A stretch of 64,000 bases of DNA, from the IMG/VR virus record IMGVR_UViG_3300045988_175002, one strand, 5' to 3'. Shown one piece after another: positions 18,973-55,355 of this stretch (position 1 is the first letter of the stretch; each line of letters opens with the position of its first letter). This DNA comes from a virus. The position numbers and the translations under genes were made by a program. The notes below the pieces were generated by a model. That model was not told where the DNA came from, did not search any database, and saw only the letters and a list, made by a program, of their open reading frames with translations.

Positions 18973-19580
18973 TCACCATCCTCACTATTAGAGGCGAGTC
19001 GGGTTCGGAGTTCCCTCAACCGGCCTAACCGTTCCTCCACAGCCTGAATACGAACGTCAACCGCAGTCAACGTGTCACCATCCGGCTCAGACAACTCATA
19101 CTTGCCGGACGACAGTCGTTCCAGAAAACTGGTGGGAACATCCCATACCAATAATCGGAGTTTGTCGGGACTGAGATTCAACCCCGTATACAAGCCGGTT
19201 TTAGGCCACATGCCATCCACGAGAGCCACATTCGGCATCATGCGCGGTGGACGGTCGGGCTGATATTTTTCGACTAGGATTCGACCAGCGAACCAGATAA
19301 TGTCGCTATCCTGCTTGGAGTACGCGTACAAGTAGTCGTAGGGGTCGATGGTGACTGTGACACGCTTTTCAGCGTCCACGCCCTTATGCCACCAGAAATA
19401 TTTGTCTAAAGCTTCGAACACCAGCCTTTCCACACGCATATCGAACGTCCAAGTCTTCAACTTGTCATCAAACGTTCCACCCAACGCGCGGGAGCGACGT
19501 GCGAACAACGGATTATACGGAGCCTTAACCTTCAAACGGACATCACTGCGAGTGACCGTAATATCATCAAAACCTGCCAT
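18969..19580 (-). CDS. hypothetical protein (203 aa)
   Basis: ATG start. Overlaps the next gene by 4 nt, suggesting translational coupling. Lies downstream of the DGR reverse transcriptase. Confidence 0.5.
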   Translation of the reverse strand: MAGFDDITVTRSDVRLKVKAPYNPLFARRSRALGGTFDDKLKTWTFDMRVERLVFEALDKYFWWHKGVDAEKRVTVTIDPYDYLYAYSKQDSDIIWFAGRILVEKYQPDRPPRMMPNVALVDGMWPKTGLYTGLNLSPDKLRLLVWDVPTSFLERLSSGKYELSEPDGDTLTAVDVRIQAVEERLGRLRELRTRLASNSEDGE

Positions 19581-23001: not shown

Positions 23002-26000
23002 TCACTGTTCTTCCTTCTTTCGTAGGAGGATGATTGCCGCGACGAGTCCGCTGATGCTGACGAGCATGAGGAGCGGCAACAGCAATCCCATGCCTGTGTG
23101 CGGCATGGTCGCCAACCATGTTTCAGGCAGGACACCCGCATCCACATGCTCCTTGGTTGGAGCATCTTGGGTGAGGGTGATGGTCAGCTTGTTGTCTTCG
23201 TCCGTGTAAGCGTCCGAATCAGTGGAGCTTCCATCCGTCGCAGGGGTCTTGTCTCCCACATCCGGCGTGGTGAAGTCCCGGTGGTTCACTTTGGTGAATT
23301 GGATACGGTATTTGTTGCCGTTCGCGTCCAGACGTTCGAAAATGTACTTGCCATCCTTGTCGGTCTTGGTGGTTGCCAACTGTTTGCCGTTCTCGTCAGT
23401 CAGAATGACCGTCTGACCGGCGAAATGCGTGTTCTCACCTTCATCTTGGATGCCGTTCTTGTTGGTGTCCTCCCAGTACAGGCCGCTGATGGAACCGAGT
23501 TTCTTCGCGGTGGTGGTTGGTGTGATGATGGTGCCGACTTGGTCGCAGGAGTCCTCGTCGGACGTGCTGAACCAGTGTTGGCGTCCTTCCTCCGTATAGT
23601 CCGTGTCGGTGCGGCATGTCGGATTGCCGGTCACATCATTCGTGTTGGTGTCCAGTTTCGTAGCGTCCGGAGTGTTCGGCGTGGTTTTGCCGATTGCGTG
23701 TGGCGTGCCCGAGTATGGTGTGTGTTCGGAGTCGAACCATGCTTGGTTGAGAATGGTCTTCGTATTCTTCTTAACCCACTCGTCAATGTACGACTGGTCT
23801 TTGCCTGTCATGTCAGCGGTCTCACGGTCAACTGTGCCGGTGAAATGGTAGATGACATAACCGCCCGGCTCAATCGCATACGGCAGATTATACGTGCGAG
23901 TAGTCAACCCATTCTCAGTGGTTTCGCTCGATGGCTCGACCGGTACGGCGGTTGGGTCGGACGATACCGCCATACCTTTCAAACCGGTGGAACGCGCGCC
24001 ACCCGTCTTACCGTCACCATACGGGTCGAAGCCCGCAATCATGACCTGTTTGCCAAGAATGAGCACGTCACGGTCGCCACCCGCCACGTCGGATGCGATG
24101 ATGCCCGTATCGACTGGGCCGATGACGTCCGTGTTGTTACCGGTGGAGCCGTTCGTCCAATACATGCCGTTGCCGGTCTTGCCGTTCGCCAATTGTCCGT
24201 CACCATTCCAGCCTGAGGCCCACAAGTGTTGGTTCTTGTCGATGGCGTACAGGGTATTGTATCCGCCGCTGATTTTCACAATGTCCTTCAAACCGGACAA
24301 GGTAGCACTATAGGTCGAGAACCAGAACACCGTCCCATCGTCTTTTAACGCGTACATTTGACCAAACGCGGCGGCGACTTGCGTGTAACCGCCACTGGAA
24401 AGCTGTCCCAAGGAAACGCCTGTACCGGAGTACAGGTATCCGCCGGACGTGTTCAAGGCGATGAAACCTTCCATGCTCGCACTGAGTTGAGTGAACTTGA
24501 CACCAGAACCGATTTGCGTCCAAGCCGCATAGTTCTGACTGCCTACAGCGTTTCCAACACCCCACAAAGTTCCGTCACTGGCGATGGCGACGGTGAACTG
24601 GTTGCCGCATGCCACGTCCGTGAACGTCTTATCCGAAGCGACTTCCGTCCACTGGTCACGATTATCCGTATCACCCGTACCCAATTGGCTGCTACCATTC
24701 CAACCGGTCGTATACAGGTGGCCGTCCGTGCTGATGGCGGCGGAATGTTTGCCACCGGCGGCGATTTTCAGCCAACTACCGTTGATGATGGTCGGCTTGT
24801 TCACGTTCGTTGGAGTGGCAGAATTCGTCGTGTCAGGCTTGAAACCAAGCTGACCATACTGGTTATTGCCCCACGCATACAACAAGCCCTCGCTCGTCAA
24901 CACGAACTTATGGTCGCCACTCGTCGCGACCTGCTTCGCGCCACCAGATTCGATGGAAACTGTACCGGCGGTAGCGGAAACATCATGCACATCAGCGCTC
25001 ATACGGTCAGAAACGACACTGGACGTGTCAAAACGACTAGTGCCAGAATTCTGTACTTTGACATCCCAGTTGATGACGCATTTCGTATCAGTGCAACTGG
25101 TGCCGGTGACGGTTTTGTCCACGGTGGCTTTCGGGTCTGGTTTCGCGTAACCGTAATCCACGCTGGTCTGGTTGATGCCGATAACCAAGTGGATGTCGTC
25201 GGAAGTGTCTTTCGCATTGGACTTGATTTTGTTCGACCAGCTTCGCGTGTTCACCACGTCTTCAAGCTTGTCGTAGTAGGTTTTGACCTGCGTCTGCACG
25301 CCATCACCCGTACTGGTGCCAGTGTTGCGTTTCACCGAAGTGCGGTAGGTGCCGGAGTGGAGTAGGTCGAACTCGTAATGACCGTCCTTATCGGTCTTCA
25401 CCGTTTTGACGGTCTGCCAGCCGCCGCTTGAATCCTGCTTGCCGAGGGTGACTTCCACCCCTTCGACACGTTCCTCACCGTCTCCGATGAGCGTGTTCTC
25501 ATCCTTATCCCACCAGACGGTGCCGCTGATGCTACCGGCCACTACCTTCGCCACGTCAGGCCACGGCTGGTTGCCCGCCGGTTTGTCGGAAGCGTCGGAA
25601 TAATAGTTGCGACCAAGCCACAGCGTGTACTTGTCGTCTTTCACATTGTCGGATGGGGTGAGTGTGATGGTGCCGTTCACCGCCGAATAGGACAGTTTAT
25701 CGTCAGACGCGACGACAGTGCTGGTCAGTCGGATGGCAGTGATGTTCTTCTTCTCGATGGCGGACAATTCATCCCATGTCTTCCACTCGTAGTCAGCCGG
25801 ATTATCCGACTTCTTTCCGGTGGTGGTTGAATAGTAGACGGTCGTACTGGTCGAATTGTCCATATTGACCGTGACGGGCTGGGTCAGTTCGTAGGAGCCA
25901 TGATAGTTGCTGTATCCACGCTCGTATTCGACCAGCTTGTCCTGCACGTACTTCTCATCACCATTCGCAGGAAGCAGTAGCATGCTATCCATGGTGCCGG

Positions 26001-28377
26001 TGTGACCGCCGCCCTTGCCGTACACGTTGAACTCCCAAGTAAGCGGGTCACTGATTTCAGCCTTCGTGGTCTTCACACGCATGATGCCACTGTTGGTTTC
26101 CGCATTGGAGACAGGGAATGGGACGCTGGGCGTATTGCTTTTGATGGTTTGGGCTTGCAATGCGCCGTTCTCGTCAACGTCCACGCTCATATTCGCACTG
26201 GCGGTCACAGTCCCGGTGGCGAGATTGGATACGATGCCACTGAAATGCAGGTCAGGCAAAGTGGCCGACCCCATACGGTCTACTTCAGGCGTGACTTTGC
26301 CAGAACGTGGCGTGAACACGAGATTATTCCCGTCCACTTTCATCTGCCAGAACGAATCATCACAGGTCGGATTGTACAAGCCTTTCGGTTTCGGCACCGT
26401 GATGGTCGGCGTCATGCTCGTATTGGACAGGAGAATGGTGCGCAACTGTTCCGTGACCGTATAATCCACTCGCATGCCGGGAATCAAATCGACTGCGCTT
26501 CCGGACGGGTGATTGGAACTGTTGTTCGCATACACTTGATTGCCTTCACCATCGTAGGCTTTCAGACTGATGTCGATACTGGTGGTCGGGTCTACCGGCT
26601 TGGCAATCCACACCCAATTGGTGACGCTCGCCTTATCGTCTTCGGTAAGCCATGCGGTCAGCGTATCCAAAGCTTCCACATTGCCTTTGGACACGTCGGC
26701 TATGGCGAGCGTGTTGAACGTGACCTGAACGTTCGGCGCACCCTTTCCTAAAGTCAACGTGTCGGGGTTGAACGTCACCCGAATCTTCTTGACGTTCGGA
26801 GCGTCCGTGTCGGATGGTTCCCCGTCATGCCAATTGTCTTTGCTATCAGCCCATTGAACTTTGTAGTCGGAAACCGGAGCACCGTTCTGGGTGACTTCCA
26901 AGCTTCCATCCCACCGCATGCGCGTATTATCCCACTCATCCTGCATGGTCGGCGTAGTGTTTTTAAGCTTGTCCGCAGTAACGTTCGCCGCATACATTTC
27001 CAAAATGGTTTTGACTTGCGTTCCACGGGACACGGTGTCGCCGGAACCGTCGGAATAGTAATGGTAGATGTCGGCTTTGCCTTCGGCGGCGTCGAACGTC
27101 AGATTCTCCTTGTCGAACATGGTCTTGGACGCAGTGTTAGGACGTTGCAGTCCTTTGCCGAACAGTGGAATCTTGCCAGCTGGAGTCGGCTTGAGCCGTT
27201 GGATGATGGCTCGTGACCAGTCATTGTTCGCGTACGGGTAGCCGACGCGGGCACCCGTATCCTTGTTGTAGGTGCTCTTGTCCCGTCCAATGTTCCAGCC
27301 GGGTTCGCCGCCCTTGCCCATGTTCAACAGTGCGTTGCCGTTATCGTCTTTGACGCTGAACACGGTTTCGTCGGGAACAAGGTGGACATCGTAATATTTG
27401 ACGTCTCCTTCTTTCATGTTTTTGAGCGCGTCGGTTCCGGCGGGAATCCTGTAGCTGATTGTCGCCGCCGTACCGTTTTTGCCACTGGATACGGTCAAAT
27501 ACTGTTCTTTATCACTGTTACGGGTAATCCGCTGACCGCCTACAGTCCACACGGTGCCCTGCGGGAAGTCGGAAATATCCACTTTGGTAGTCCAATCGAT
27601 GCTGGTGGACGCGCCCTTCGTGGACGAATAACCCGGATAGGTCAACGCGTCGGTACGAATAGTGAAATCACCGGTCGCATCGGTGTTCTGACTCCAATAA
27701 GTACGATGCTCATACGAGTATTGGCCTTTCACCGGATTGCCGCCATTGTCAATGACCAAGTCAGCCGCCGGAGCGGATACTACAGTCAGCTCATCCGTAC
27801 GATACGTGGTTGACGTTCCACCTTCGCGGGCGACGACGATTTTCGGAATCTGACCCGGCTTGACCAAGCCTCCCGTGTCTTTTGCTTTCAGATAGAAGGT
27901 TTGGGTCATGGTTTCCACGCCACCGGCTGGAACCGTGTAGGAGCAGGAGCCGTCACTGTTTTTCTTCGCGGTGACGAGTTGTCCCGGCTGGCAGAAGCCA
28001 CCACCGTCAGCAGTCTGCAAATACGGCGCGTCATCCAAGTCGAACTTCACGTTGATGGTACGCTTGCCCGCCGCGTTGAAGTTCAACGTGAGAGAATATT
28101 CGACCGTATCACCGGATGCGACCACGCCATCGGTAGGGGAATCATCGCCCGTGGCGAACCCGTTCTTCGAATTCACGAACGTTTGCGAACTCGTGCCATG
28201 CCCCGTACCGTCGGCTTTCTTAACGATTTTCGCAGTAGCATATGCGGGTTTCAACTCGTCCGCATGCGCTTTCGGAGAGGCTACCGGATTGGTCATGCAT
28301 ATCAGGCCGGATGACAGTGTGGCGATTGCGGCCAATAATGCTACCGGATGTGCCACATGCTTTTTGAGAATACCCAT
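23002..28377 (-). CDS. giant LPXTG-anchored surface adhesin with RCC1 beta-propeller repeats and CnaB/SdrD-B-type domains (~1790 aa)
   Basis: Own start at ATG 28375-28377 with an AAGAAGGAA ribosome-binding site. Signal peptide MGILKKHVAHPVALLAAIATLSSGLICMTNPVASPKAHA. Repeated YxWGxNxxGQLG RCC1 blades. Multiple prealbumin-like B domains of the form GxVWxDxDxNGxxD...DGxYxF. C-terminal LPHTG, followed by a hydrophobic helix and RKKEEQ. In the ORF track it is fused to the sortase ORF. Confidence 0.75.
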   Translation of the reverse strand: MGILKKHVAHPVALLAAIATLSSGLICMTNPVASPKAHADELKPAYATAKIVKKADGTGHGTSSQTFVNSKNGFATGDDSPTDGVVASGDTVEYSLTLNFNAAGKRTINVKFDLDDAPYLQTADGGGFCQPGQLVTAKKNSDGSCSYTVPAGGVETMTQTFYLKAKDTGGLVKPGQIPKIVVAREGGTSTTYRTDELTVVSAPAADLVIDNGGNPVKGQYSYEHRTYWSQNTDATGDFTIRTDALTYPGYSSTKGASTSIDWTTKVDISDFPQGTVWTVGGQRITRNSDKEQYLTVSSGKNGTAATISYRIPAGTDALKNMKEGDVKYYDVHLVPDETVFSVKDDNGNALLNMGKGGEPGWNIGRDKSTYNKDTGARVGYPYANNDWSRAIIQRLKPTPAGKIPLFGKGLQRPNTASKTMFDKENLTFDAAEGKADIYHYYSDGSGDTVSRGTQVKTILEMYAANVTADKLKNTTPTMQDEWDNTRMRWDGSLEVTQNGAPVSDYKVQWADSKDNWHDGEPSDTDAPNVKKIRVTFNPDTLTLGKGAPNVQVTFNTLAIADVSKGNVEALDTLTAWLTEDDKASVTNWVWIAKPVDPTTSIDISLKAYDGEGNQVYANNSSNHPSGSAVDLIPGMRVDYTVTEQLRTILLSNTSMTPTITVPKPKGLYNPTCDDSFWQMKVDGNNLVFTPRSGKVTPEVDRMGSATLPDLHFSGIVSNLATGTVTASANMSVDVDENGALQAQTIKSNTPSVPFPVSNAETNSGIMRVKTTKAEISDPLTWEFNVYGKGGGHTGTMDSMLLLPANGDEKYVQDKLVEYERGYSNYHGSYELTQPVTVNMDNSTSTTVYYSTTTGKKSDNPADYEWKTWDELSAIEKKNITAIRLTSTVVASDDKLSYSAVNGTITLTPSDNVKDDKYTLWLGRNYYSDASDKPAGNQPWPDVAKVVAGSISGTVWWDKDENTLIGDGEERVEGVEVTLGKQDSSGGWQTVKTVKTDKDGHYEFDLLHSGTYRTSVKRNTGTSTGDGVQTQVKTYYDKLEDVVNTRSWSNKIKSNAKDTSDDIHLVIGINQTSVDYGYAKPDPKATVDKTVTGTSCTDTKCVINWDVKVQNSGTSRFDTSSVVSDRMSADVHDVSATAGTVSIESGGAKQVATSGDHKFVLTSEGLLYAWGNNQYGQLGFKPDTTNSATPTNVNKPTIINGSWLKIAAGGKHSAAISTDGHLYTTGWNGSSQLGTGDTDNRDQWTEVASDKTFTDVACGNQFTVAIASDGTLWGVGNAVGSQNYAAWTQIGSGVKFTQLSASMEGFIALNTSGGYLYSGTGVSLGQLSSGGYTQVAAAFGQMYALKDDGTVFWFSTYSATLSGLKDIVKISGGYNTLYAIDKNQHLWASGWNGDGQLANGKTGNGMYWTNGSTGNNTDVIGPVDTGIIASDVAGGDRDVLILGKQVMIAGFDPYGDGKTGGARSTGLKGMAVSSDPTAVPVEPSSETTENGLTTRTYNLPYAIEPGGYVIYHFTGTVDRETADMTGKDQSYIDEWVKKNTKTILNQAWFDSEHTPYSGTPHAIGKTTPNTPDATKLDTNTNDVTGNPTCRTDTDYTEEGRQHWFSTSDEDSCDQVGTIITPTTTAKKLGSISGLYWEDTNKNGIQDEGENTHFAGQTVILTDENGKQLATTKTDKDGKYIFERLDANGNKYRIQFTKVNHRDFTTPDVGDKTPATDGSSTDSDAYTDEDNKLTITLTQDAPTKEHVDAGVLPETWLATMPHTGMGLLLPLLMLVSISGLVAAIILLRKKEEQ

Positions 28378-29283
28378 TAGTGTTCCTTCTTTGCGTGGTT
28401 TTTTTCTACGGATGATGAGAATGGTGATGATGATTACCGCAAGCCAGAAGCCGCCGACGTACAGTATGAGCCATTGGTTCGTGTGGTCTTTCGGCGCGTT
28501 TTCGGGTCTGGGTGCGGGGTGCGGCATGCTGGCGCGCGTGCCGGTCACTAGGAGTCGCTTGTTGTTGATGCCGTATGGCGTGCAGGTTAGGAGTGTGGCG
28601 AGGTCTTTTCCGGCGACGATTTTCAGTTTGGTGAAATCGGATGGGTCTACCACATCAATGCTTGTGACCTTGTAGGCGAGCGTATGTCCGGCGGTTATCA
28701 GATAGAAGACGTCACTTTTTTTGGCTTCACTGCCGAAGCCTCGTAGCTTGTCGAACATGAGCTGGTCTGCCAAACCCGTATGCGCGGATATGACAGTATG
28801 CGTGTTCTTGCCGCCGACGGGGAGACTGGAACCATATAAGTGTCCGGCTCCAGCGGCCAACACGTTTTGCGACGTGCCATGCCGGATGGGCAGGTTGATG
28901 CCCAAGCGTGGATATTTGATGGTAGCCATGACCCCATCCTTGGGGGTGGATAGTTGCTTCCGATACGTGTTGTCCGTTTCGGACTTGTTGACGCCCGTCC
29001 AAGGGTCTTCCGCCTCACCAAGAATGGGCTGACCCTCCTCGTATAGGCGTTGATTGTAGGCTTTCGCGTCCGCATACTCTTGGGCGATTCGTTTCACGTC
29101 AGTGTTTTCCACGGCTTGCGCGTGGGAGTCAGTCAACCGGTTGGATTGGCTGCTATTCGAAATCATGAGGATGAATGGGATGGTTCCGGACAGGGCGGAT
29201 AGGATTAGGCAGAGGAGTCCCGCTATGGCTCGATTTCCCAAGCCTTTCGGTTTCGCCGTATGTTTTCCCAAAACCCCTCCCAT
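28378..29283 (-). CDS. srtC: class C (pilus-associated) sortase; no in-frame stop before the adhesin start
   Basis: Contains VISAHTG (catalytic His), TLLTCTPYG (the TLXTC catalytic Cys) and a downstream Arg (LLVTGTRA). An N-terminal TM is followed by a C-terminal TM, WLILYVGGFWLAVIIITILII, and then RRKKPRKEG. The reading frame continues without a stop into the adhesin. Confidence 0.7.
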
Positions 29284-29400
29284 GCGGTTATAAAGAATCT
29301 AAAAGGTGGCGTGTCGATATTTGGGTTCCCGACACGCCAAGCGGAACATTTCATGCTTTTCCAGCCGTCAAACGGTCAGAAAAGTTTTCTCATACGACTC

Positions 29401-41306: not shown

Positions 41307-42029
41307 TCAGATTTTCAGCTCATCGATAACGGAAAGGTCAACACCGTCACCCCAATTATCGACAATCTTGCTCAGGTTCTTACGCATTCCGGCAGGAGAC
41401 TGGTCGTCAACCGGACGGCCGAAATTCTTCTCCGGCGCGACCGCGTTCAGCACGGAGAACAGCAGGTTGGTCATATCCTTGCCCTGCGCGAACACCAACG
41501 TCACCTCTGCGGCAATCATGCCCGGCTCGGCTGTAGCCAACCCTTCCAACGCGGACGCGAACTCGGAGATTCGACGTTGGTTCTTCGGTTCGGTCAATGC
41601 GTCCAGCACTGCTTCCGGAGTGCTCTTCTTCGTATCGGTCAACGCCTTGGCAAGAGAAACCACACGCTCGTCATCCAACGATTTGACAAGAGGAATCAGC
41701 TTCTTGCCGAACTGTTCCTCGATGTGCGGCATGGTCTTCTCACGCGGTTTGCGATTGGAACGGCCCTTACCTTTCCCCTTCGGCTTGTCTTCGGTTTCAG
41801 TGGACTCAGCGGCCACGTTCACATCCTCACCATCAGCCGGTGCGGACACGTCAGAGACAGGCTCCGAACTCTCCTGATTAAGAGAATCGGATTCCGTCTG
41901 CGACTCCTCGACAGAAGACTGCTCCGGTTCAGCATAATTGTCGGAACCGTAACCATTGTCCTGCTCCGACTGCTGGTTGTTGTTGAATCCCCAATTGGTG
42001 AAGTCTGGCATCATACCTTCTTTCGTCAT
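41307..42029 (-). CDS. hypothetical highly acidic protein (240 aa)
   Basis: ATG start. The N-terminal third is a low-complexity Glu/Asp/Ser-rich region and the C-terminal half is ordered. Confidence 0.45.
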   Translation of the reverse strand: MTKEGMMPDFTNWGFNNNQQSEQDNGYGSDNYAEPEQSSVEESQTESDSLNQESSEPVSDVSAPADGEDVNVAAESTETEDKPKGKGKGRSNRKPREKTMPHIEEQFGKKLIPLVKSLDDERVVSLAKALTDTKKSTPEAVLDALTEPKNQRRISEFASALEGLATAEPGMIAAEVTLVFAQGKDMTNLLFSVLNAVAPEKNFGRPVDDQSPAGMRKNLSKIVDNWGDGVDLSVIDELKI

Positions 42030-42089
42030 ATCCAGCGAACACTCCGGTCGTACAGGCTGTTAACAGTCGGAACGAGGTGTTCTGTATTT

Positions 42090-42960
42090 TCAATTCACGA
42101 GTGTAACGCCCGACAGCATCACCAAACGAGGAAAACGGAAAAAAACAATTCCCCGCGCCGCCCGCGCCGGTAGTTCCAACAGAAAAGCGGAACCAAAAAG
42201 AGTCCCCAACAAAATATGAAAAAAGGAACAGCACCCGACCATTATCAGAAAAACCATGAAAACCATCCAGTCCACGCCGGTAGGTCAACATGAATAGCAG
42301 ACTCAAAAAAAAGAGAAAAACCAAAAATCAAAAAGACTAAAAGAAAGGAAGTGAATATTTGCAGCTTTCAAGGCCACTGATTATTCCCTTTCAAGGAAGC
42401 GCTACCCACCAAAAATCAGAAAAAGAAACCAAACACCATCACATCAAAAAAAGAAGAACCAAGAAAATCAGAAAGAAAAGAAAAACCAAAAGGAAGAAAA
42501 GGAGAATATAAGAGCAGCAATCTTAATCAAATAGAAGCAACAGAAGAACAGGACAATAGAAGAAGAAACGCCTACCCCTAAATCGGGAATACAACGTATG
42601 AAAACAACAGAGGCAACGTAACCATCCACCAAAAGAACAGCACATCAACCCATATGACATACAGAACAGAAGAACGACATCACCAAACCCCCCAAGAAAC
42701 AAGAAAAGCAACAAGCCACACCATCACAAGACAACAAACCGAACATCAGTATCAACACGACGGCACACAACAACCACAGCACAAAACGACAACAGCGAAA
42801 AGGTCAATAGTCTCACTAACAAGGTCAACGACAATCAAAACAAGGTAACATCAATACAGGAACAGCCAATGCAATGAAAAAAAGCAACAGCAGAACCAAC
42901 AAAAAACTAAATATCAAAAAACTATAAATGCCAGAACTCGGACAAAACCGTAAACGTTCC
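42090..42960 (+). other. ~870-bp thymine-depleted (A/C/G-only) low-complexity tract, probably non-coding
   Basis: The plus strand is almost devoid of T over ~870 nt. It is A/C-rich, with recurring aaaaaccaaaa, agaaag and GGA-containing words. Only short low-complexity ORFs are present. It lies immediately upstream of the ParA-like/translocase cluster. Confidence 0.6.
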
Positions 42961-42977
42961 GATGAAAACAACGGAAC

Positions 42978-44192
42978 ATGACCCATCAGGAGGCGGTCTT
43001 ATTGGAAAAACGAACGATTTCCCTGATAATCGGCTCCGGAGGGCTTCTCACAACCATCAAAAAGGCCCTTACGAGAGCCGGAAACATGCGTTGGCAGGTG
43101 CCCGCCGCAGACAATATTCAAGCACAGGCCGACTATCTGATAAGACATCCGGTGCCCTCCGGGTTCAAAGGAATCATCTTCACCGACAGGGCTGGAAACT
43201 GGCTTCCGATAGCCAACGCCGGATACATGGTCTACTGGTGCAACACCGGTCAGATACCGGTCGGAGCCATGGGCATGAGCGAACAGATGTTACGCATGAG
43301 CGTGGCTGATTTCGCACGGACTTATTGGGGAATCCAGCTTGCGGACAAGCGTCTCGTAGTCGATATCCTCCAAAACAAAGTGAAGGAGACTGCGGTTCTC
43401 CTACCCATCACATCCAACACCGGAGGAGTGGGGAAGACCACGTCCAGCCGACAGTTGGCAGACCGTGCGTCGCAAGCCGGATTACGAGTTCTGCTCATCG
43501 ACGGGAACATCAGACAGTCCAGCCAACGTAGTTTTTTCGACCCGAGACAGGACAAGCCATTGCATACGATAGCCGACTGGCGACCGGGCATGCAGGTGCA
43601 GGTCGGAGCCAATCGAGGACGTGACCTTGGGGTTCCATACGACATCTGTTTCGCACCTCCAGCCGGTATCGGAGTGGACTGGCAGATATACCGTCAGTAC
43701 ATCCAAGCGGCACGCCGACTGTGGGATTTCGTCGTGCTTGACCTTGACCGAATCAGCGCGGACGATTTGGATGATAGGGAGAATATCGCCAACGGTTTAC
43801 TGCTTCCATACATTCAATCGGGAGACCCTTGTCTGGTTATCGTCAAGGCTGGAAGGCAGACGCAGATAGACGCGTTGAATCTGCTGACGGCCTTGGCTGA
43901 GCATCATCTTCCGAAGGAACTCATCGGAATCAAGGACACCGTTCCGGTCGGACTGCAAGGTTACAGACGACTCGACTATACGAGATACGGAACGTTTCTC
44001 GGAACCGAATATCAGACGGTCGAGGCAAGCAACCATATCGCCAACGGTGATGTCAGATGGGATGACCCCGGTCTTGCTTTTGCTAGGGAGAACATTCTTA
44101 ACTGGGCTTTGCCCGACCGTGGTTTCAATCCGGAAAGATTCAATCCGAACGTTAAGAACAGTGAAGGAAAGAAAGGTCGTGGGCGTAAGTGA
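42978..44192 (+). CDS. ParA/MinD-superfamily P-loop ATPase with N-terminal extension (404 aa)
   Basis: Deviant Walker A SNTGGVGKTT at residue ~147. Walker B-like VVLDLD. The N-terminal ~130 aa are an additional domain. Confidence 0.55.
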   Translation: MTHQEAVLLEKRTISLIIGSGGLLTTIKKALTRAGNMRWQVPAADNIQAQADYLIRHPVPSGFKGIIFTDRAGNWLPIANAGYMVYWCNTGQIPVGAMGMSEQMLRMSVADFARTYWGIQLADKRLVVDILQNKVKETAVLLPITSNTGGVGKTTSSRQLADRASQAGLRVLLIDGNIRQSSQRSFFDPRQDKPLHTIADWRPGMQVQVGANRGRDLGVPYDICFAPPAGIGVDWQIYRQYIQAARRLWDFVVLDLDRISADDLDDRENIANGLLLPYIQSGDPCLVIVKAGRQTQIDALNLLTALAEHHLPKELIGIKDTVPVGLQGYRRLDYTRYGTFLGTEYQTVEASNHIANGDVRWDDPGLAFARENILNWALPDRGFNPERFNPNVKNSEGKKGRGRK

Positions 44193-45385
44193 CATTCGAT
44201 GACCGTTTTCTTTTCGACCCGAACGACGAGAATCTTTGGAAGACCGGAAGCATTGCCGACTGGTATAAAGGCAACGACATGTTCGAGATGGAGCATCCCG
44301 GATTGTTCGCGCAGACCCACCCGTGGTTCGTTGCGAACAAACTGTTCGCGGAGACAATGGTGAAAGCGAACAACGAACTCGTTTCGAGTATCCTCGGAGC
44401 ATTGTTCACTTGGAAGACATGCACGGTTGACCAACTGCGTGCGGGACTTTCCATCAAAGGCGCTCCCGCTTTCGAGCGTGACGAACCGAACCTGTATGGT
44501 GCGATGAACCGTTTGGGAATCATCAACGTCGGTTTCAGTCAGGCGGAACGATTGTACGGTCAGACCGTGAATCATGTTTGGCTTTCACCGTCAAACAGTC
44601 CACGTCTTATCAACCGTGCGATGAAATTGTACGGGATGGAAAAGTGGATGCGTGAGACGATGGCGGTTTCCTATTACGCGGGGAATCGTTTCCATGTTCG
44701 GCATAACACTTATGCGGCGCACGCGGGATTGATGTTGGCACGCGATTCACGTGTGAAATTTTCATCCGGTGATGGTTGGGGGAAATTCCGTAGCGTTGAC
44801 CCACAGGCTGTTGCCGAATCGAAAGTCGGCAAGGCTTGCGCTACCGATGTGGTGACGTTGTGCCGGAACAATGTGTTGGCGGGTATCGAAATCCAAACGT
44901 CGAACAGCGAATTGGATAAGAAGATGCAGAACTGGGCGAAGATGCTCGCCTACTCTCCGATGAAACGTCGCGGACTCATCTGCGTATGGTTGCAGATACC
45001 GAAGGCGAACGAAGGTTACGAATCGTTCAATGCGGTGATACAACGCACGCAAGGCATGACGGAAATGGTCGTGGGCAATCCGACCGTGTCGCAACGAATG
45101 GGAGTCGCGGTTTGGGATGAATGGTTCGAGCATGGAATTCCAACCGACAGGTTCGGTGAATATACGGACATGAGTGGAACACGGCGCAACATTTTCTCCG
45201 ACGAGTGGGTGCAATACACTCCGCAGGTTCGTGACGTTCGCAAAGTCAGCGAATGGGGTTGGGACGTGACGCGGGACATCATCAAAAAGGATTGGGGTTG
45301 GGACGTTTCCGGTTGGACGATGCCGGAAGCGTACCGTGGCGGTTTCTACGGTTTCATTGGAAAGGATTGCGATGGTCTCCACTGA
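44189..45385 (+). CDS. hypothetical protein (398 aa), possibly replication-relaxation-family-like
   Basis: GTG start overlapping the upstream stop. No decisive motif. Its placement between the ParA-like ATPase and the DNA translocase in a transfer module is the only functional hint. Confidence 0.3.
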   Translation: MTFDDRFLFDPNDENLWKTGSIADWYKGNDMFEMEHPGLFAQTHPWFVANKLFAETMVKANNELVSSILGALFTWKTCTVDQLRAGLSIKGAPAFERDEPNLYGAMNRLGIINVGFSQAERLYGQTVNHVWLSPSNSPRLINRAMKLYGMEKWMRETMAVSYYAGNRFHVRHNTYAAHAGLMLARDSRVKFSSGDGWGKFRSVDPQAVAESKVGKACATDVVTLCRNNVLAGIEIQTSNSELDKKMQNWAKMLAYSPMKRRGLICVWLQIPKANEGYESFNAVIQRTQGMTEMVVGNPTVSQRMGVAVWDEWFEHGIPTDRFGEYTDMSGTRRNIFSDEWVQYTPQVRDVRKVSEWGWDVTRDIIKKDWGWDVSGWTMPEAYRGGFYGFIGKDCDGLH

Positions 45386-45829: not shown

Positions 45830-48490
45830 ATGAGCGGCCAGAACTGGTATCAGATAACCAGAACATTGCAACAGCTTGACGCGGACGAGCAACGTTCGAA
45901 AGTGGAGAGCATTCCCGCCGAACTGGACGGATGCACACTGCTCCTCATCAAGAAGGGCGAGGAGCCGGTCAAGGAATACATTTACGGCGACGGCGAGGGA
46001 ATCATCAACGCCGGACAGTTGGCTGGATTCGACGCGAAATTGGTCGAAGACGACGACGGGCCGGTGTTGCCGGACGGTGTGAACAGTGCGGCACATCCTC
46101 TCATCCCGTTCCGTGCCCGGTTGAACTCGAAAAGCAACATGGAGAAAATGCGGACGAACTATTCCGGTGTTCGTACAAGCATCGAGAAGGTCATGCCGCC
46201 GGACAGTTACGTGAGCGTCACGCTTCGCAATCAGGGATACTTCGAGCAGATTCGTATTCGTAATTGGATTAGCGACGAATACAATGCGGTCGAGGATTCA
46301 AGCGAACTTGCTTCGACCAACACGATGTGCGCCCGTGTGAGTTTCGGTTGCCGTCAGGCTTCGCGTAACCGACAGCTTGCGCAGAAGATTGGTCAAATCA
46401 TCTGCCCGCTCATATCCAACATGTCCAGTCATGCGAGCCATCCGAAATTCGGTTTGCTGTTCGTCAGCATGCTGTTGGAAGTGTTGTCCGTGATTTGGAG
46501 TGTGTGCGGTCTTGCAAGAGGATACGTGATGGATGGGGTTTTCCCATTGTTCCATTCCGCTTGGGGTTTCGGAATCGCGCTTCCGTTGCTTGCTGTGACG
46601 TTGGTCGTGTTCCTGTTCCTCATGCTGTTGTCGTGCATTCCGTTCGTTTACATTCCGCGACCTCAGATTGCCGGTGGAGCGGTGGCGCTCATGCTTTACC
46701 TGCTGTTGGGGTTGCTTCCGCTTCCGACATTCATTCCGATTCTTTTCGTTCCGCTTCTTGTCTTCGCGTTCATTCGTTGGAAGAATTGGACGTTGTGGGA
46801 TGATATTTTCCAAACGCCACGCAGATATTATGCGATTGCGAACGACCGTGGCGCGAACGATTCCGATAATCAGACCCGTCTTGGCGTGCGAACTCATAAG
46901 GAGCGCGTGTCGGCTTATGGTGCGCAACGTACCACGTTGATTCTTTCCCCGATTATCGTAAGTTCCGTGTTCACTCCGGTCACTCAGGGAGTGGCGATGA
47001 AACAGGAGTTGCATCCGGTTCCGGAAGTATTGTCGCATGATGGCATCTTCCTTGGGAAGGATGATACGGGACGTAACTGTTATCTTGACCCGTCGCAACT
47101 GTTCGGCGGTATCGCCATCAACGGCGAGGCCGGTTCCGGTAAGACCGTGCTTACCCATGGCATCAGCCAGTGGGCCATCAGCGCACGCGAGACCACCAGT
47201 CCGAAAATCTGGGGACGCGACTCCCGTATCATCCATTTTTGGATGAAGGATGATACGGGAGTGAACGTGTTGGAACGTTATCGCAAACGTCACGGTTTCA
47301 CCAGTCCGCAACGCGTCGTCTATTTGGCCGACCCGAACAGCGTATGTTTGGACATGCTCGGCATGAAGGACGGGAATAATGCGATGGAGACTGCGGCGAG
47401 CGTGGCGAAGACCATGCGTTACTCGTTCGATGACGGTGATATTCTGAACGACTCGCAGAACATCATCACCCAAGCGTTGACCATCGGCGTGGCGGTTGAC
47501 CGTTACGTACAGGAGGAACGTAAGCATAATCCCGAATCCGCGAACAAGGATTGGGAAAGCGAGATTGTGAAACGTTGCCATCAGCTCGAACAATCGTATC
47601 CGGGTGCGGAACAGTTGCGAATGCAGCTAAGTCCAATCGGATGGGCCGTCGTCGCATTATGCGGTTCCGACGGTCAGGCCGGTTCCGCGAAAGCGTTGGG
47701 TCATGTGTGCCGCGCGTTGAGCATGGAGTTGAAGAGTGGCTACATGTTCGAGGAGATGACGTATGCCGCCCGTGCCGCCGAACAATTGTATGGCCGTCCG
47801 GACGCGGCTGGTCATACGGTTCGTTCCGACCGTGACATTCTCGCCAAGACGAACGCCTCGTTGAACAAGGTGAACCAGTTCCTTCCCATCGAACACATGT
47901 TCACGGCACGTCGTGGCAAGGTGACTTGGACGAACATTCTCGACCATGCTGGCGATTATCACATTGTGCTCGCACCTCATAATGGTTATTCGTTGCCGGA
48001 ACGTATGGATAAGATTCTCGGCGGCTGGCTCATGTACCGTTTCTGGAATACGGTGTTCGCGCATTGCAAGGATTGGGACAAGGCTGGCAAGTGGACGATG
48101 CTCGTGTGTGACGAGTTGAGCTTGTTGGCTAACGGCAATGACGGTATCATGCCCGCGTTGCGTGAGCAGGGTCGTTCGTTCGGTCTTCTTCTCGTGTTCG
48201 CCACCCAGTATCCGACCCAGTTGTCCGACGCGATGTTGGATTCGTTCATCGGCTATTCGACGTTCATCACATACAATACGACGATTCCGCGTATCGCCGA
48301 TATGACGGCGAAGCGTCTGACGAACAATGACGGGGAGGATGGTTGGCGTTCAGGTGCGGTCATGAATCTTCCACGTTATGCGGCGGCTGTTCGCACTCGA
48401 ACCCAAGAACAGTTGCAGCCGACATTCCTTGTCCATGTGAACGATTTCGATAACGGTTATCGCAATGGTAACATGGACGATGATGACTAG
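45830..48490 (+). CDS. FtsK/TraB/VirD4-superfamily conjugative DNA translocase (coupling-protein-like), 886 aa
   Basis: Three or four TM helices at residues ~200-330. Walker A GIAINGEAGSGKTV. Walker B MLVCDELSLLA. A ~190-aa soluble domain lies N-terminal to the TM region. Confidence 0.6.
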   Translation: MSGQNWYQITRTLQQLDADEQRSKVESIPAELDGCTLLLIKKGEEPVKEYIYGDGEGIINAGQLAGFDAKLVEDDDGPVLPDGVNSAAHPLIPFRARLNSKSNMEKMRTNYSGVRTSIEKVMPPDSYVSVTLRNQGYFEQIRIRNWISDEYNAVEDSSELASTNTMCARVSFGCRQASRNRQLAQKIGQIICPLISNMSSHASHPKFGLLFVSMLLEVLSVIWSVCGLARGYVMDGVFPLFHSAWGFGIALPLLAVTLVVFLFLMLLSCIPFVYIPRPQIAGGAVALMLYLLLGLLPLPTFIPILFVPLLVFAFIRWKNWTLWDDIFQTPRRYYAIANDRGANDSDNQTRLGVRTHKERVSAYGAQRTTLILSPIIVSSVFTPVTQGVAMKQELHPVPEVLSHDGIFLGKDDTGRNCYLDPSQLFGGIAINGEAGSGKTVLTHGISQWAISARETTSPKIWGRDSRIIHFWMKDDTGVNVLERYRKRHGFTSPQRVVYLADPNSVCLDMLGMKDGNNAMETAASVAKTMRYSFDDGDILNDSQNIITQALTIGVAVDRYVQEERKHNPESANKDWESEIVKRCHQLEQSYPGAEQLRMQLSPIGWAVVALCGSDGQAGSAKALGHVCRALSMELKSGYMFEEMTYAARAAEQLYGRPDAAGHTVRSDRDILAKTNASLNKVNQFLPIEHMFTARRGKVTWTNILDHAGDYHIVLAPHNGYSLPERMDKILGGWLMYRFWNTVFAHCKDWDKAGKWTMLVCDELSLLANGNDGIMPALREQGRSFGLLLVFATQYPTQLSDAMLDSFIGYSTFITYNTTIPRIADMTAKRLTNNDGEDGWRSGAVMNLPRYAAAVRTRTQEQLQPTFLVHVNDFDNGYRNGNMDDDD

Positions 48491-52500: not shown

Positions 52501-53530
52501 CGTGTTGGACATGGCTAATGGTGACGCTCCGTTGTCGTCTCCGTTCTCCGGCGCCGGTGACGGTGGTTCCGACAATGGTGACAGTCCTATGCCTTCTCCG
52601 TCGGCTCCGAATCCGGATGTCCCAACCCAAACCGGTGGTGCCGGTGGCGCGTCGCCGATTCCGACTGACGGTCAGACGGAACCGATTCCGGTGGACACTC
52701 CAACTGAATCGGTTCCAGCCGACGCTCAAGGACAGGCTCCGGTGTTGACCGAACAGTCCGCGTTCAATCAGGTTCGTGAGGGAATGATGGCCGACTTCGT
52801 GGATAACCAGCACATGTCCCGAGAGAATGCGGAACAGGCTTTCCAAGAAGCCGTGGCCTCCGGCGAGGTCGATAATTCCGTCCAAGCGTATATGAGCCAG
52901 AACAATCAATCTCCTAATGAGAATGCGACAGCTCAACCCGAAACGAACGCCAACCAGCCGGTGTACAACACTGAGACAGGTGAGATTGTTGGTGAGACCC
53001 TACCCTCCGGAACGATGGACGCCGCCGTGTCCTCCGCCTCCACTTGGCAGAAGGCAACCGACAATGCGACTCCGATGCCTGAATCGGTGAACAATTCACT
53101 GCAACAGGCGTACATGCGCGAGAATCCGGTGCAACAGTCTCCGGAGGAGCATTTGCGGATGGCTCAGGAGGAATGGACTGCGACGACCGGACTGCCGGGG
53201 TCTACGATGCCGTCGGGTGCCGAACGGGCTATGAACCCGAATGGAATTCAGCCGAGTAGAAAATTCACGGTGGATTCCGGGCAGACGCAACAGCAGGGTT
53301 CGGTACAGGCGCAAGCTCCGCGACAGCAGTCTCAACCGCAGCCACAAGCTCAGGTAAGACAACAGCCGTCGGTTCGAATGCAACCGCCAACCACACCGTC
53401 ACCGACCGTCAAACAGCCAGTGGACGCCAACCCGTCAAACCTGACAGGTTTCCCCTCCGTAGGCAATCTTCGTATGAAGAAACCGCCGACCGGAGGACAG
53501 CCGACACCCAAACCGCCGTTCATGAAGTGA
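49526..53530 (+). CDS. large polytopic membrane protein (1334 aa), VirB6/TrbL-like core with Gln/Pro-rich C-terminal tail
   Basis: TTG start overlapping the upstream stop. An N-terminal signal/TM is followed by a large extracytoplasmic domain. A cluster of at least 5 TM helices spans residues ~560-690. An Ala/Gly-rich segment follows, then a C-terminal low-complexity P/Q/T-rich ~350 aa. Confidence 0.55.
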   Translation: MNTKYRDPVKRAGRRNLLVILMLCVVMTLFVLPSSVFAAQVNDSTTTITCANGGTDSATSDISSCLPSGRWGNYVGEITSRTEPYSGSDVAGWFSNVKQTISSQTHIVLPNILMQLTQVCWSSALSISQFAASFEPMKQAGANIDSAVSTMVTSLMDGGIPATIAVLGIVAWVGAAGFQIGTVKEASKRIVIMVLCFASITMLGAGAAKTGKNATEPATGSPWWVVQTINNTINKLSVNLDLDGMADSDKNMMSYHHAANGAKTNCQDYLYFMHQAYDEQAKSNGNQDTSNITKAINRIWEETSLRSFVTMQYGNPQTTGTSSFRIAENARQGYCHVLEMKANTNTTIQKDLTNKAMALHISDQRAKWLFSVDGWVDPRNPYFTDKPLERENATYLSRAGVFWETCGTKRNQEIYARAGWATLINNLGDTGTKNIKNGSTKVRVKIDDLDNVKPTNGGKGVMDAKQNGSEDETIQQTTSVCQTILKQGSVIFSRSTDINKEDDGTYKDQQNDTNWGDSATVGWRFDVPNVSGTWSEANLRDAQDDSTVTGGAKKTIDYMYGNNNVDTLGACGTLIGGIVNLVVWGLLSLVLILTKLMLIMMALFLVVTFLVQAFPIGEKPKNALKNWATYTCQLSMVGALYGALGTLATFICGLTLKFTSASSGSFTYQLIAGLSPVLAIAAIGMFCSKVLKWGNPFSINALMGMAGGTAMASGLRKGMHMIGQHRMIRAMRGGFRRGGNGVGRLSTNGTGAGMAHNGARQSETVLSKMSRAQQEALSNGDRNLLNRSQSELEAIQSHGRKSRTWARMDANTVRGSLAGTRLHMEKSHDKFRQRLNTAASKFKGADNTEAFAHRIAQRHPGMSLDKVQRRAEMMNHLNNDGRKLQSAARVAGAGAAMAGAGLAFAARAAKSAPLRNVVARGAKVAAKAAVTGALFSNPITAPLGLIAAGKLAADRNLHHGIAVGAGAAMDKIRDIKNAAPGSMRERAQWRRNVLDMANGDAPLSSPFSGAGDGGSDNGDSPMPSPSAPNPDVPTQTGGAGGASPIPTDGQTEPIPVDTPTESVPADAQGQAPVLTEQSAFNQVREGMMADFVDNQHMSRENAEQAFQEAVASGEVDNSVQAYMSQNNQSPNENATAQPETNANQPVYNTETGEIVGETLPSGTMDAAVSSASTWQKATDNATPMPESVNNSLQQAYMRENPVQQSPEEHLRMAQEEWTATTGLPGSTMPSGAERAMNPNGIQPSRKFTVDSGQTQQQGSVQAQAPRQQSQPQPQAQVRQQPSVRMQPPTTPSPTVKQPVDANPSNLTGFPSVGNLRMKKPPTGGQPTPKPPFMK

Positions 53531-54899: not shown

Positions 54900-55355
54900 A
54901 TGGTCAAGAACATCAAACGCAACGCTTTCGCAACCGGAATGCAGGACAAGCGTGACATGCGCCCATTGGAATCACCGGAAAACATTAGCGAACCGAACAC
55001 GGAGCAGGAACCGACACAGGCCGTTCCTGAAACGCGGGAACCGTCAGACCAGTCAGTCCAAACGTCCGCCGACATGCATGCCCAAACGCTCACGGAGGAA
55101 GAAGCCGACCGTCGGGCACGGCTCATCACCGACATAACCCGTCCTGAAACACCGGCACCATCCGAAACGCATCAGCCGCCGAAAGAGAAAAGAATCGGCA
55201 GCAACGTCACCGTCGAGAACTGGCGGGCATGGAAATTGAAAAGCATCGAATACGGGACGAAGCAGGCTGTATTGTTGAATGCCGCGATGGATTACTGTTT
55301 CCAGCAGGGGCACTTCGACCAGACGCTCATCGACAAGTATGAGCAGAAGGAATAG
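54900..55355 (+). CDS. putative partition centromere-binding partner protein (ParB/ParG-like, 151 aa)
   Basis: Immediately downstream of parA. A Glu/Pro-rich linker is followed by a C-terminal alpha-helical DNA-binding-like segment (GSNVTVENWRAWKLKSIEYGTKQAVLLNAAMDY). The assignment is by position. Confidence 0.4.
   Translation: MVKNIKRNAFATGMQDKRDMRPLESPENISEPNTEQEPTQAVPETREPSDQSVQTSADMHAQTLTEEEADRRARLITDITRPETPAPSETHQPPKEKRIGSNVTVENWRAWKLKSIEYGTKQAVLLNAAMDYCFQQGHFDQTLIDKYEQKE

Follow-up and report, generated by a model that had tools for sequence, protein, structure and literature searches.

Among the closest described counterparts of the locus considered here is cATTpLS20, the 456-nt regulatory leader with which the conjugation operon of pLS20 (>32 kb) starts and which gates expression of that operon as a zipper-type attenuator (PMC13401043). 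The likeness lies in non-coding DNA of several hundred nucleotides standing directly before the first genes of a Gram-positive conjugation operon. The pLS20 leader, however, uses a long stem-loop, an antiterminator and an intrinsic terminator, whereas the A-rich, T-poor tract described below has essentially no folding potential, no conserved sequence and a variable length, and keeps only a 6-bp hairpin at its 3' end. Rho-dependent leader attenuators and their rut regions offer a second comparison, as the tract, if transcribed, would share with them an untranslated and unstructured RNA with more C than G upstream of a gene. A rut site needs ~80 nt and depletion of U is not one of its defining features, whereas the tract measures 300-870 nt, lacks G depletion in four of 11 lineages, and has U depletion as its universal property. 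A third comparison is with TraX of pAD1, a MOBC relaxase composed of a winged helix and a PD-(D/E)XK domain, whose binding sites are five direct repeats located 70-120 bp from the nick site (PMC12857230). The second gene of the present locus has the same architecture, and three direct repeats are separated from a hairpin by ~110 bp, which is similar to the repeat-to-nick distance in pAD1. In contrast to TraX, the gene 2 product has no similarity to MOBC models, no nick site was identified, and the repeats number three instead of five. Furthermore, we know of no T-poor tract in the pAD1 oriT.

The tract resides on a distant relative of the pMP7017 megaplasmids of gut Bifidobacterium, of which a stretch of 64 kb (hereafter the window) was analysed. 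A first-pass annotation had delimited it correctly to positions 42090-42960 (871 nt, plus strand) and had placed it, also correctly, between a divergent acidic-protein gene on its left (41307-42029, minus strand) and a ParA-like gene on the plus strand, the gap of ~950 bp being filled by the tract. Its composition is 48.6% A, 24.8% C, 15.7% G and 10.9% T, compared with 23.2% A and 23.9% T in the whole window (z = +17.7 for A and -9.0 for T). The description as almost devoid of T was an exaggeration, as the tract holds 95 T and its longest T-free run is 51 nt. Depletion of T alone is not unique to it either, since 871-nt coding stretches elsewhere in the window come near, with the depleted base down to 11.6-12.7%. 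What sets the tract apart is its A content together with low T: no other part of the window exceeds 35% A, and an AT skew of 0.6-0.8 in non-coding DNA is found here only. The strand asymmetry itself is confirmed. Of the A-rich words reported as recurring, AAAAACCAAAA occurs twice and AGAAAGAAAAG only once. Taken together, the earlier observation was overstated and is partly confirmed: the tract is a real and apparently undescribed feature of a control region. The text of the dedicated pMP7017 papers (PMC10832533, PMC8313286) does not mention it, nor does the supplement of the transcriptome study among them (PMC10832533).

Most of the tract is a fast-evolving, non-coding core (42105-42795, plus strand), recognised by its composition, its divergence and the absence of a conserved reading frame. 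The core is not homogeneous, as its second quarter leans towards A+G while the distal half is rich in A+C, with C/G values up to 3.6. It holds a direct repeat with a spacing of 110 nt (42162-42199 and 42272-42309) and a T-containing insertion of 48 nt (42345-42392, plus strand), which includes an internal repeat (CTTTCAAGG, two copies), carries ~20 of the T residues of the tract, and is private to this variant, being missing in all near-identical loci. Near-identical relatives contain 8-9% T.

Relatives of the locus were recovered through an alignment of ParA-like proteins, a family of 47 protein clusters; a genome scan with the single protein matched nothing. The tract was kept in 11 of 11 lineages examined, at the same place upstream of the ParA-like gene and on the same strand. 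These lineages span 43-100% identity of the ParA-like protein and include Bifidobacterium breve, B. longum, B. callitrichidarum and Pseudoscardovia suis. Across them the tract contains 4-13% T and 33-52% A, and its length varies three-fold, from ~290 to ~870 nt. Composition is kept even where the tracts no longer align, sequence is not. Divergence between close relatives amounts to 5-7% within the tract and 1-2% in its flanks, a turnover about five-fold that of the flanks, and between lineages whose ParA gene DNA is 89% identical the tract is only ~70% identical, with ~300 gap columns. Indels of 1, 2, 4, 5, 22, 30, 45, 48 and 110 nt were found, some of which break the frame, and the length changes through duplication and deletion between short repeats. 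An assembly artefact is ruled out, as more than 20 independent metagenome assemblies and finished plasmids carry the tract.

A neutral origin, either as functionless slippage DNA or through deamination of a strand that is often single-stranded, would account for the fast evolution and the many indels, for the A<->G changes that form the bulk of the substitution spectrum, and for a minus strand of 73% G+T, the direction expected from deamination of C and A on that strand. Vertebrate mitochondrial DNA shows the same amino/keto axis, with one strand rich in A+C and the other, the heavy strand, rich in G+T owing to deamination of single-stranded DNA. A purely mutational origin, however, misfits the few C>T changes and the A+G-rich sub-tracts of two lineages (L059 and L079; plus strand 52-55% A, 29-32% G and 1-2% T), which leave the minus strand C-rich, a state that deamination cannot produce. 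Among 65 polarised substitutions in the tract, A>T occurred once and A>C nine times, and C>T four times as against six C>A, compared with seven and two in the flanks; changes that create T are thus under-represented in the tract relative to its flanks. Furthermore, the composition persists in lineages no longer alignable, and no other intergenic region in the 190 kb of pMP7017 is alike. The tract is by far the largest of its kind both there and in the window, and since upstream regions of these plasmids generally lack an A skew (mean AT skew ~0.01-0.09), it is specific to this locus. A mere by-product of mutation therefore seems quite improbable.

More conventional identities fared still worse. 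The tract does not encode a protein conserved among homologues: across six frames and 11 lineages, 2-13 stops occur in every frame of every lineage and no frame is common to the lineages, the period-3 signal is absent (z = -0.8 to 0.4), and indels of 1, 2, 4, 5 and 22 nt between relatives with 98-99% identical flanks exclude a coding function. Stop-free frames of up to 207 codons do occur in some lineages; T-poor DNA has few stop codons. In pMP7017, an ORF of 91 aa is annotated on the strand opposite the tract. As RNA, the sense strand is predicted to fold with -0.06 kcal/mol/nt, compared with -0.16 for the antisense strand and -0.31 for the downstream coding RNA, and the minimum free energy of the whole 871 nt (-92 kcal/mol, z = +1.05) indicates no excess of structure. 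No Rfam match was obtained at E values up to 1 and no stable long stem-loop is present, which excludes a known structured RNA family as well as a zipper attenuator of the pLS20 type. A sponge RNA of the CsrA/RsmA type is rejected likewise, as the GGA triplets, previously described as many, number 12 where composition predicts 10.4 +/- 2.9. In the B. longum clade, the tract contains none or one of the Shine-Dalgarno-like G-rich 4-mers (GGAG, GAGG, AGGA or AAGG).

A role in DNA replication or in translocation by a TraB-type pump, both proposed initially, also finds little to build on. Within the tract there are neither iterons nor tandem repeats, only low-complexity matches in two copies, and no k-mer is consistently enriched across lineages. 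The replication origin of pMP7017 was mapped experimentally to repB at ~120 kb (PMC8313286), whereas the homologous tract lies at 52.7-53.3 kb, which excludes an iteron-type origin and makes a vegetative origin unlikely. The locus does coincide with a switch in cumulative skew, which follows the change in gene orientation. The ATPase encoded at 45830-48490 proved to be TrwB-like instead of FtsK/TraB-like, and no array of 8-bp recognition repeats exists, so that a clt locus drops out. Intrinsically curved DNA is likewise excluded, as no lineage shows an A-tract period above the shuffle threshold (z at 10.5 bp = -0.8 for the tract in the window). The long open frames, the ORF annotated in pMP7017 and the position at an orientation switch could be cited for one or another of these identities, yet stops and frame-breaking indels between 99% identical relatives, the lack of periodicity, of an Rfam match, of excess structure, of GGA enrichment and of iterons, an origin located elsewhere, a TrwB-like ATPase and the many independent assemblies speak against them. 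That the tract is a low-complexity protein gene, a structured or sponge RNA, a vegetative origin, a clt site or an artefact is, taken jointly, extremely improbable.

Conserved sequence is found at both ends of the tract. On the left, a region adjoining the start of the acidic-protein gene (42030-42104) keeps 92-100% identity even in lineages whose flanking genes have dropped to 81-89%. It contains CTGTTAACAG, a perfect palindrome (42057-42066), as well as a small terminator-like hairpin that runs into a stretch of T (42068-42094). A GC box, CCCCGCGCCGCCCGCGCCGG (42151-42170, plus strand; core CCGCCCGCGCC at 42158-42168), marks the 5' edge of the tract itself and occurs once in the window. The exact core is present in 28 of 91 loci, always on the plus strand and at a single site in each locus, which in two loci is a tandem pair, and the box is situated at the 5' boundary of the tract in the lineages inspected, which cover 47-100% ParA identity; the B. 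longum clade has a variant form, and Pseudoscardovia no clear box. Just 3' of it lies an inverted repeat, GTTCC-N11-GGAAC (42173-42193, plus strand), for which support is weaker: B. callitrichidarum (L003) has it as well as the window, but in two further lineages (L029 and L035) it is degenerate.

On the right, a block at 42796-42955 (plus strand) is nearly invariant in the lineages with 89% identity, in which the tract has diverged to ~70%. It includes three direct repeats 21 bp apart on the plus strand (GGTCAAT, 42802-42808; GGTCAAC, 42823-42829; GGTAACA, 42844-42850), the last of which overlaps a -10-like TAACAT (42846-42851, plus strand). The layout is equal in pMP7017, with GTTAATT, GTTAATA and GTAATAT at spacings of 21 and 20 bp. 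The block is followed by a hairpin, GTTCCG-N10-CGGAAC (42956-42977, plus strand), located 25-45 nt upstream of the start codon and present in nine of 11 representative lineages, with no clear equivalent in L003 and L004. Compensatory double changes have taken place in two independent lineages (TATTGG/CCAATA in L059 and GTTTTC/GAAAAC in L077), and G.U wobbles in L029 and L069 are possible on the plus strand only; the covarying hairpin fits the plus strand better. No conserved sequence follows it. Next come a Shine-Dalgarno sequence AGGAGG (42988-42993) and a TTG (43002-43004), both read from the plus strand. This TTG is probably the true start of the ParA-like gene, because alignments with homologues begin only at residue 9-14 of the ORF that starts with ATG at 42978.

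The genes to the right look like a DNA-processing (Dtr) module, in line with the initial suggestion that the tract directly precedes DNA-transfer genes. The first of the transfer block encodes a ParA/MinD-like P-loop ATPase (42978-44192, plus strand), whose matches to Pfam (CbiA/AAA_31) and NCBIfam (ParA/MinD-type) cover the P-loop only and leave an N-terminal extension of ~130 aa. Gene 2 (44189-45385, plus strand) encodes a protein with a winged helix and a PD-(D/E)XK nuclease fold, a candidate MOBC-like relaxase, and further downstream follows a membrane-anchored type IV coupling protein of the TrwB/VirD4 type (45830-48490, plus strand). Neither gene 2 nor the coupling protein had a sequence match in Pfam, NCBIfam, PHROGs or the PDB, and only fold comparison was informative for the two. 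In pMP7017, the transfer block, comprising DNA processing and type IV secretion, is co-directional over ~45 kb.

Such a gene set raises the possibility that the intergenic region is the oriT of the family, in which the tract, acting as single-stranded DNA, would form an easily melted and palindrome-free zone of unwinding or entry. With the ParA-like ATPase as helper, the gene 2 nuclease would attach to the direct repeats, introduce a nick close to the conserved hairpin and pass the strand on to the coupling protein of the TrwB type. This idea gained plausibility when gene 2 showed the architecture of a MOBC relaxase, as in TraX. It also profits from the position of the tract directly upstream of the Dtr-like set, from the distance between the repeats and the covarying hairpin, in which G.T wobbles would be tolerated in DNA too, and from a GC content that falls to 33-45% at the tract in a replicon of 53-57%. 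In addition, an oriT is wanted: no relaxase or oriT has been recognised in this megaplasmid family and MOB-suite types six of six PLSDB relatives as 'non-mobilizable', yet pMP7017 is conjugative (PMC10832533). On the other hand, the tract has no conserved sequence and a three-fold range of lengths, the candidate signals being the flanking elements, and although the entire plasmid is transferred as single-stranded DNA, it shows no such constraint, which makes a special role of these 300-870 nt an assumption. After the hairpin, no consensus of a nick site is recognisable, and the gene 2 nuclease matches none of the relaxase sequence models searched, its Foldseek matches not being significant.

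A further parallel is overdrive, a defined enhancer of ~24 bp that adjoins the Agrobacterium T-DNA border and is bound by the ParA-like VirC1. There, too, a ParA-like ATPase of a DNA-processing module acts near a nick site on a strand-biased element (T/G-rich, with an A/C-rich complement), but the tract contains the overdrive core (AACAAACA on the complementary strand) no more often than composition predicts. On balance, an oriT with the tract as its unwinding zone appears unlikely, yet is the main rival of the reading given below. Slightly less likely, in our estimation, is the more specific notion of a cis element defined by composition, a 'T-less strand', within an oriT of a new type, whose relaxase would be divergent, MOBC-like and of the restriction-endonuclease fold, and would act together with the ParA-like ATPase. 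Such an element could, for instance, be a polar, hairpin-free zone of unwinding or loading, or an expendable leading end where the relaxase does not remain covalently bound.

The reading we prefer, tentatively and in the awareness that it may well be wrong, is that the tract is a signal-free and structure-free untranslated leader or spacer of the transfer operon. It would be a composition-constrained spacer within the control region of ~950 bp that heads the transfer gene block, transcribed with that block in the plus sense as a long 5' leader. The 'design' of such a leader would be purely negative, in that T, and hence U in the RNA, is avoided on the sense strand of a sequence rich in A. Without U, the A residues would find no pairing partners and the RNA would remain single-stranded, intrinsic terminators with their U-runs could not form, and NUG starts and U-containing stops would be rare. 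On the DNA level, -10 elements of the TANNNT type would be avoided in either orientation. The only signals left would be those of the flanks, namely the palindrome and the GC box upstream and the direct repeats, the hairpin and the Shine-Dalgarno sequence downstream, while the length of the tract could drift freely by slippage and duplication, provided that no T-rich signals arise. A long, naked and untranslated RNA with more C than G would be a natural substrate for Rho, and the leader would in this way keep the costly transfer operon off unless transcription is protected or re-initiated.

Several results point in this direction, among them the composition shared by all lineages, the rarity of T-creating changes, the unstructured sense RNA, the covariation of the hairpin with wobbles confined to the plus strand, and the restriction of the feature to this locus. 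Simple consensus scans revealed no sigma-70-like promoter on either strand of the tract and no intrinsic terminator on its plus strand. Furthermore, the tract is skewed (A>T and C>G) in the same direction as the sense strand of the plus-strand genes to the right, though far more strongly. The C/G ratio in 78-nt windows has a median of 1.55 and a maximum of 3.6, and the tract forms the longest plus-strand run of such windows with C/G > 1.5 in the 64 kb. The part concerning Rho is weakened, however, because a tract-wide C/G of at least 1.4 is reached in only seven of 11 lineages (the window and six others), C being about equal to G or lower in L059, L069, L079 and L003. Against the leader as a whole stands that no promoter was recognised upstream of the tract, by consensus scan or by eye, and that the conserved -10-like TAAYAT and the repeats spaced by 21 bp lie downstream of most of it; if TAAYAT were the promoter of the operon, the tract would be outside the main transcript. 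The promoter motif of the pMP7017 'regulon' is not present at the locus, its single copy in the window being located at 12203-12226. In addition, start and stop trinucleotides are no rarer in the tract than its composition predicts. The orientation of the tract is inherited by descent, so that the 11 lineages do not amount to 11 independent tests of strand specificity. While pLS20 provides a precedent for a long leader, we found no documented precedent for one specified by composition alone, as known regulatory leaders act via defined structures.

The placement of the -10-like element and of the direct repeats downstream, together with the conserved, palindrome-bearing region upstream, suits yet another explanation, in which the tract is not transcribed and serves as a 'promoter-proof' spacer or insulator between two divergent and tightly regulated promoter regions. 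A-rich DNA of low complexity would expand by slippage, and selection would purge variants that create promoters or other signals, the depletion of T on one strand being sufficient to abolish TANNNT elements in both directions. The lack of promoter-like sites on either strand, the three-fold variation in length by duplication and deletion between short repeats, and the absence of any positive sequence signal are all as expected of such a spacer. However, AT-richness would not be needed, given that GC-rich DNA avoids promoters as well, and elsewhere in these plasmids divergent intergenic regions have no comparable feature. Moreover, an insulator should be indifferent to which strand bears the A residues, yet inverted, T-rich segments are found in none of the 11 lineages despite the rapid turnover. 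We consider a spacer or insulator of this kind rather improbable; in the preferred reading, that of an untranslated leader, selection against unwanted signals is the presumed constraint.

To our knowledge, no conjugative plasmids other than the pMP7017-type megaplasmids are known from Bifidobacterium. These megaplasmids are reported from ~10% of human gut microbiome samples, mainly those of mothers and infants (PMC10832533). The likely answers to three questions, namely how expression of their transfer genes is turned on, at which site transfer begins and which protein makes the nick, come together in one stretch of 3.5 kb, which comprises a control region with its boxes, repeats and hairpin, a spacer held by composition, a ParA-like ATPase, a nuclease of relaxase-like architecture and a TrwB-like coupling protein. 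It is rare for 300-870 bp of bacterial non-coding DNA to keep the composition of one strand through turnover of the sequence, and if it is functional, the tract would exemplify selection on what a sequence must not contain. Should the 'T-less strand' turn out to be part of an oriT, it would also reveal where the bifidobacterial megaplasmids have the oriT and the relaxase that are so far missing. A functional tract may also aid the design of mobilisable vectors for bifidobacteria, a group in which genetic manipulation is difficult.

The A-rich, T-poor tract at 42090-42960 fills, as the first-pass annotation had placed it, the space that separates the ParA-like gene from the divergent gene for an acidic protein (41307-42029, minus strand). 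Its 871 nt comprise 48.6 % A, 24.8 % C, 15.7 % G and 10.9 % T, against window averages of 23.2 % A and 23.9 % T (z = +17.7 and -9.0, respectively), with an AT skew of up to 0.6-0.8 and a GC content down to 33-45 %. To call this DNA almost devoid of thymine was an overstatement, as 95 T were counted, although the depletion itself is real. T-free runs extend to 51 nt at most, a length equalled elsewhere in the window, and in two coding stretches of the window the depleted base is also as low as 11.6-12.7 %; unique to the tract is the combination of 49 % A (elsewhere in the window at most 35 %) with low T in non-coding DNA. The supposed wealth of GGA triplets was no enrichment (12 observed versus 10.4 expected), and a GGA sponge was rejected. 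About one fifth of the T in the window's variant is contributed by a private 48-nt insertion (42345-42392), which carries the internal repeat CTTTCAAGG twice and GGAAG at its flanks, and is missing from all near-identical metagenome copies.

PLSDB contains just six similar records, all of them Bifidobacterium megaplasmids from the pMP7017 family, which match the window at ~65 % DNA identity in the ParA-like gene only (57 % for the protein). They share with the window the order acidic protein (minus strand), gap, ParA-like gene, 398-aa gene, small gene and ~880-aa ATPase, and in pMP7017 and a B. longum plasmid a syntenic tract indeed occupies the same site on the same strand. A protein search with the ParA-like protein returned 47 clusters, and an alignment-based scan yielded 77 metagenome loci in addition to B. 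callitrichidarum and Pseudoscardovia suis; recurrence of the tract in the metagenome loci rules out an assembly artefact. Each of the 11 lineages examined, which span 43-100 % protein identity, has a T-poor, A-rich tract of ~290-870 nt upstream of the gene, with 4 % T in Pseudoscardovia (378 nt; 51 % A, 32 % C, 13 % G) and in locus L059 (346 nt). T depletion and A excess are common to all 11, whereas G is depleted in only some of them (C/G is 1.4 or more in seven and ~1 or below in the other four), and in many lineages the second quarter leans to A+G and the distal half is rich in A+C. On the 190-kb pMP7017 the homologous stretch measures 575 bp and is by far the largest, the few others spanning ~200-260 bp. 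Upstream regions generally lack A skew, which makes it specific to this locus. The family relationship is confirmed by one copy, with two mismatches, of the 34-bp promoter-overlapping pMP7017-specific regulon motif at 12203-12226 (minus strand); the tract locus carries no copy.

Several identities were rejected, and taken together they retain hardly any probability. Stops occur in every frame of every lineage, indels break frame and 3-nt periodicity is absent, so the tract encodes no conserved low-complexity protein. Because of this frame-breaking variation, the 91-aa hypothetical protein called by RefSeq on the T-rich strand of the pMP7017 counterpart (53034-53309; 7198-7473, minus strand, in locus L001) is probably spurious. 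Neither an Rfam match nor unusual folding (MFE -92 kcal/mol over 871 nt, z = +1.05) indicates a known or structured RNA; furthermore, the tract is neither an iteron array nor a tandem repeat, and curved DNA was excluded. A vegetative replication origin, as initially proposed, is very unlikely, since that of pMP7017 was mapped elsewhere, to repB at ~120 kb (PMC8313286).

Relatives that are 1-2 % apart in the flanking genes are 5-7 % apart in the tract, which also carries indels of 1, 2, 4, 5, 22, 30, 45, 48 and 110 nt. At 89 % DNA identity of the ParA gene, identity in the tract drops to ~70 %, with ~300 gap columns, and between more distant lineages its interior does not align at all, T nevertheless staying at 4-13 %. 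A 38-nt direct repeat (CCGCGCCGGTAG...) lies at 42162-42199 and 42272-42309, 110 nt apart; in three related loci (L021, L028 and L033) precisely one 110-nt unit is missing, as if the two copies had recombined. Only 6 of 65 polarised substitutions in the tract create T; A>T occurred once versus nine A>C, and C>T versus C>A numbered 4 to 6 in the tract and 7 to 2 in the flanks. Small as these numbers are, the spectrum points to a composition held against mutation. It thus speaks against a neutral origin through slippage or deamination, as do the deep conservation of composition and the A+G-rich sub-tracts, and we give this explanation little credence.

The surroundings of the tract are conserved. 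A 75-nt region adjoining the acidic-protein gene (42030-42104) exceeds the genes in conservation and includes a perfect palindrome, CTGTTAACAG (42057-42066), probably an operator for divergent promoters. The 5' edge is marked by a GC box (plus strand), single in the window, whose exact core CCGCCCGCGCC (42158-42168) recurs in 28 of 91 loci from lineages at 47-100 % ParA identity, always on the plus strand and once per locus, save for a tandem pair in two of the 28. The final ~180 nt before the ParA-like gene are also conserved. Here the direct repeats GGTCAAT (42802), GGTCAAC (42823) and GGTAACA (42844) lie exactly 21 bp apart, the third overlapping a -10-like TAACAT, and pMP7017 has GTTAATT, GTTAATA and GTAATAT in the same layout. 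They are followed by a hairpin, GTTCCG-N10-CGGAAC (42956-42977), found in 9 of 11 representative lineages. Because two independent lineages carry compensatory double changes and two further ones G.U wobbles that pair on the plus strand only, the hairpin is, judged by covariation, a real single-strand structure favouring that strand. Inverted repeats of the form GTTCC-N9-15-GGAAC number six in the window versus 0.96 expected (0 of 100 shuffles reached six); two flank the tract, and the others (7459-7482, 19118-19139, 29325-29347 and 55023-55041) lie mostly inside ORFs. The ParA-like gene itself probably starts at TTG 43002 rather than ATG 42978, since TTG 43002 sits 8 nt past an AGGAGG and alignments with homologues begin no earlier than residue 9-14 of the longer ORF.

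Judged by these comparisons, the evidence shows a non-coding spacer, constrained in one-strand composition and free in sequence and length, flanked on both sides by conserved cis elements and leading into the transfer genes. Tentatively, we prefer to read it as a signal-free untranslated leader of the transfer operon, its T depletion in A-rich DNA being a form of negative design. The sense RNA (or single-stranded DNA) would be left without pairing partners, and the RNA indeed folds at -0.06 kcal/mol/nt versus -0.31 for coding RNA. U-run terminators, TANNNT promoter elements in both orientations and A/T-containing palindromes would be gone, start and stop triplets would be rare, and such a naked leader, mostly with C exceeding G, would be accessible to Rho. 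Among Gram-positive conjugation operons, long regulatory leaders have precedent, for instance in pLS20 (456 nt; PMC13401043), where the leader acts through structure; our literature search for comparable leaders returned structured examples only. Against the leader count the non-universal G depletion and a plausible promoter-operator block downstream of the tract, and it is weakened by our finding no promoter upstream. We consider it rather unlikely that the tract is a promoter-proof spacer that separates divergent regulated promoters and is itself not transcribed.

The tract could instead be part of the family's oriT, which seems somewhat unlikely: in its favour are the neighbouring genes together with the repeats and hairpin beside the tract, but on its own it does not account for a constraint that acts on these 300-870 nt and spares the remainder of the transferred strand. 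The first transfer gene codes for an N-terminally extended ATPase of the ParA/MinD type, and in pMP7017 heads a ~45-kb co-directional block that includes type IV secretion-like genes, pilins, a sortase and a PrgA-like protein. The second (44189-45385, plus strand) matched no sequence family searched; its structure model combines a winged helix with a PD-(D/E)XK nuclease, as is typical of MOBC relaxases. MOB-suite types the plasmid family as non-mobilizable, and this product is a candidate for the missing relaxase. Elsewhere on the minus strand, the window encodes a 408-aa ORF with a reverse-transcriptase domain (19850-21079; RVT_1, E 3e-13) and a giant 2092-aa protein (23002-29283) in which a sortase domain is joined by RCC1 repeats and surface domains of the SdrD/SpaA type.

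Searched in full text, the two papers devoted to pMP7017 mention neither the tract nor an oriT or intergenic elements at this locus, in line with the initial claim that no such element had been described. The tract is real, conserved and unusual; we take it to be a control region or leader of a conjugation operon, possibly overlapping oriT, and there is a minority chance that it represents a new kind of DNA-transfer element encoded by composition. Of the side results, the candidate MOBC-like nuclease is among the most informative, along with the conserved elements around the tract (boxes, repeats and hairpin); together they offer concrete targets in the search for the relaxase, oriT and transfer-gene switch of megaplasmids widespread in the gut.
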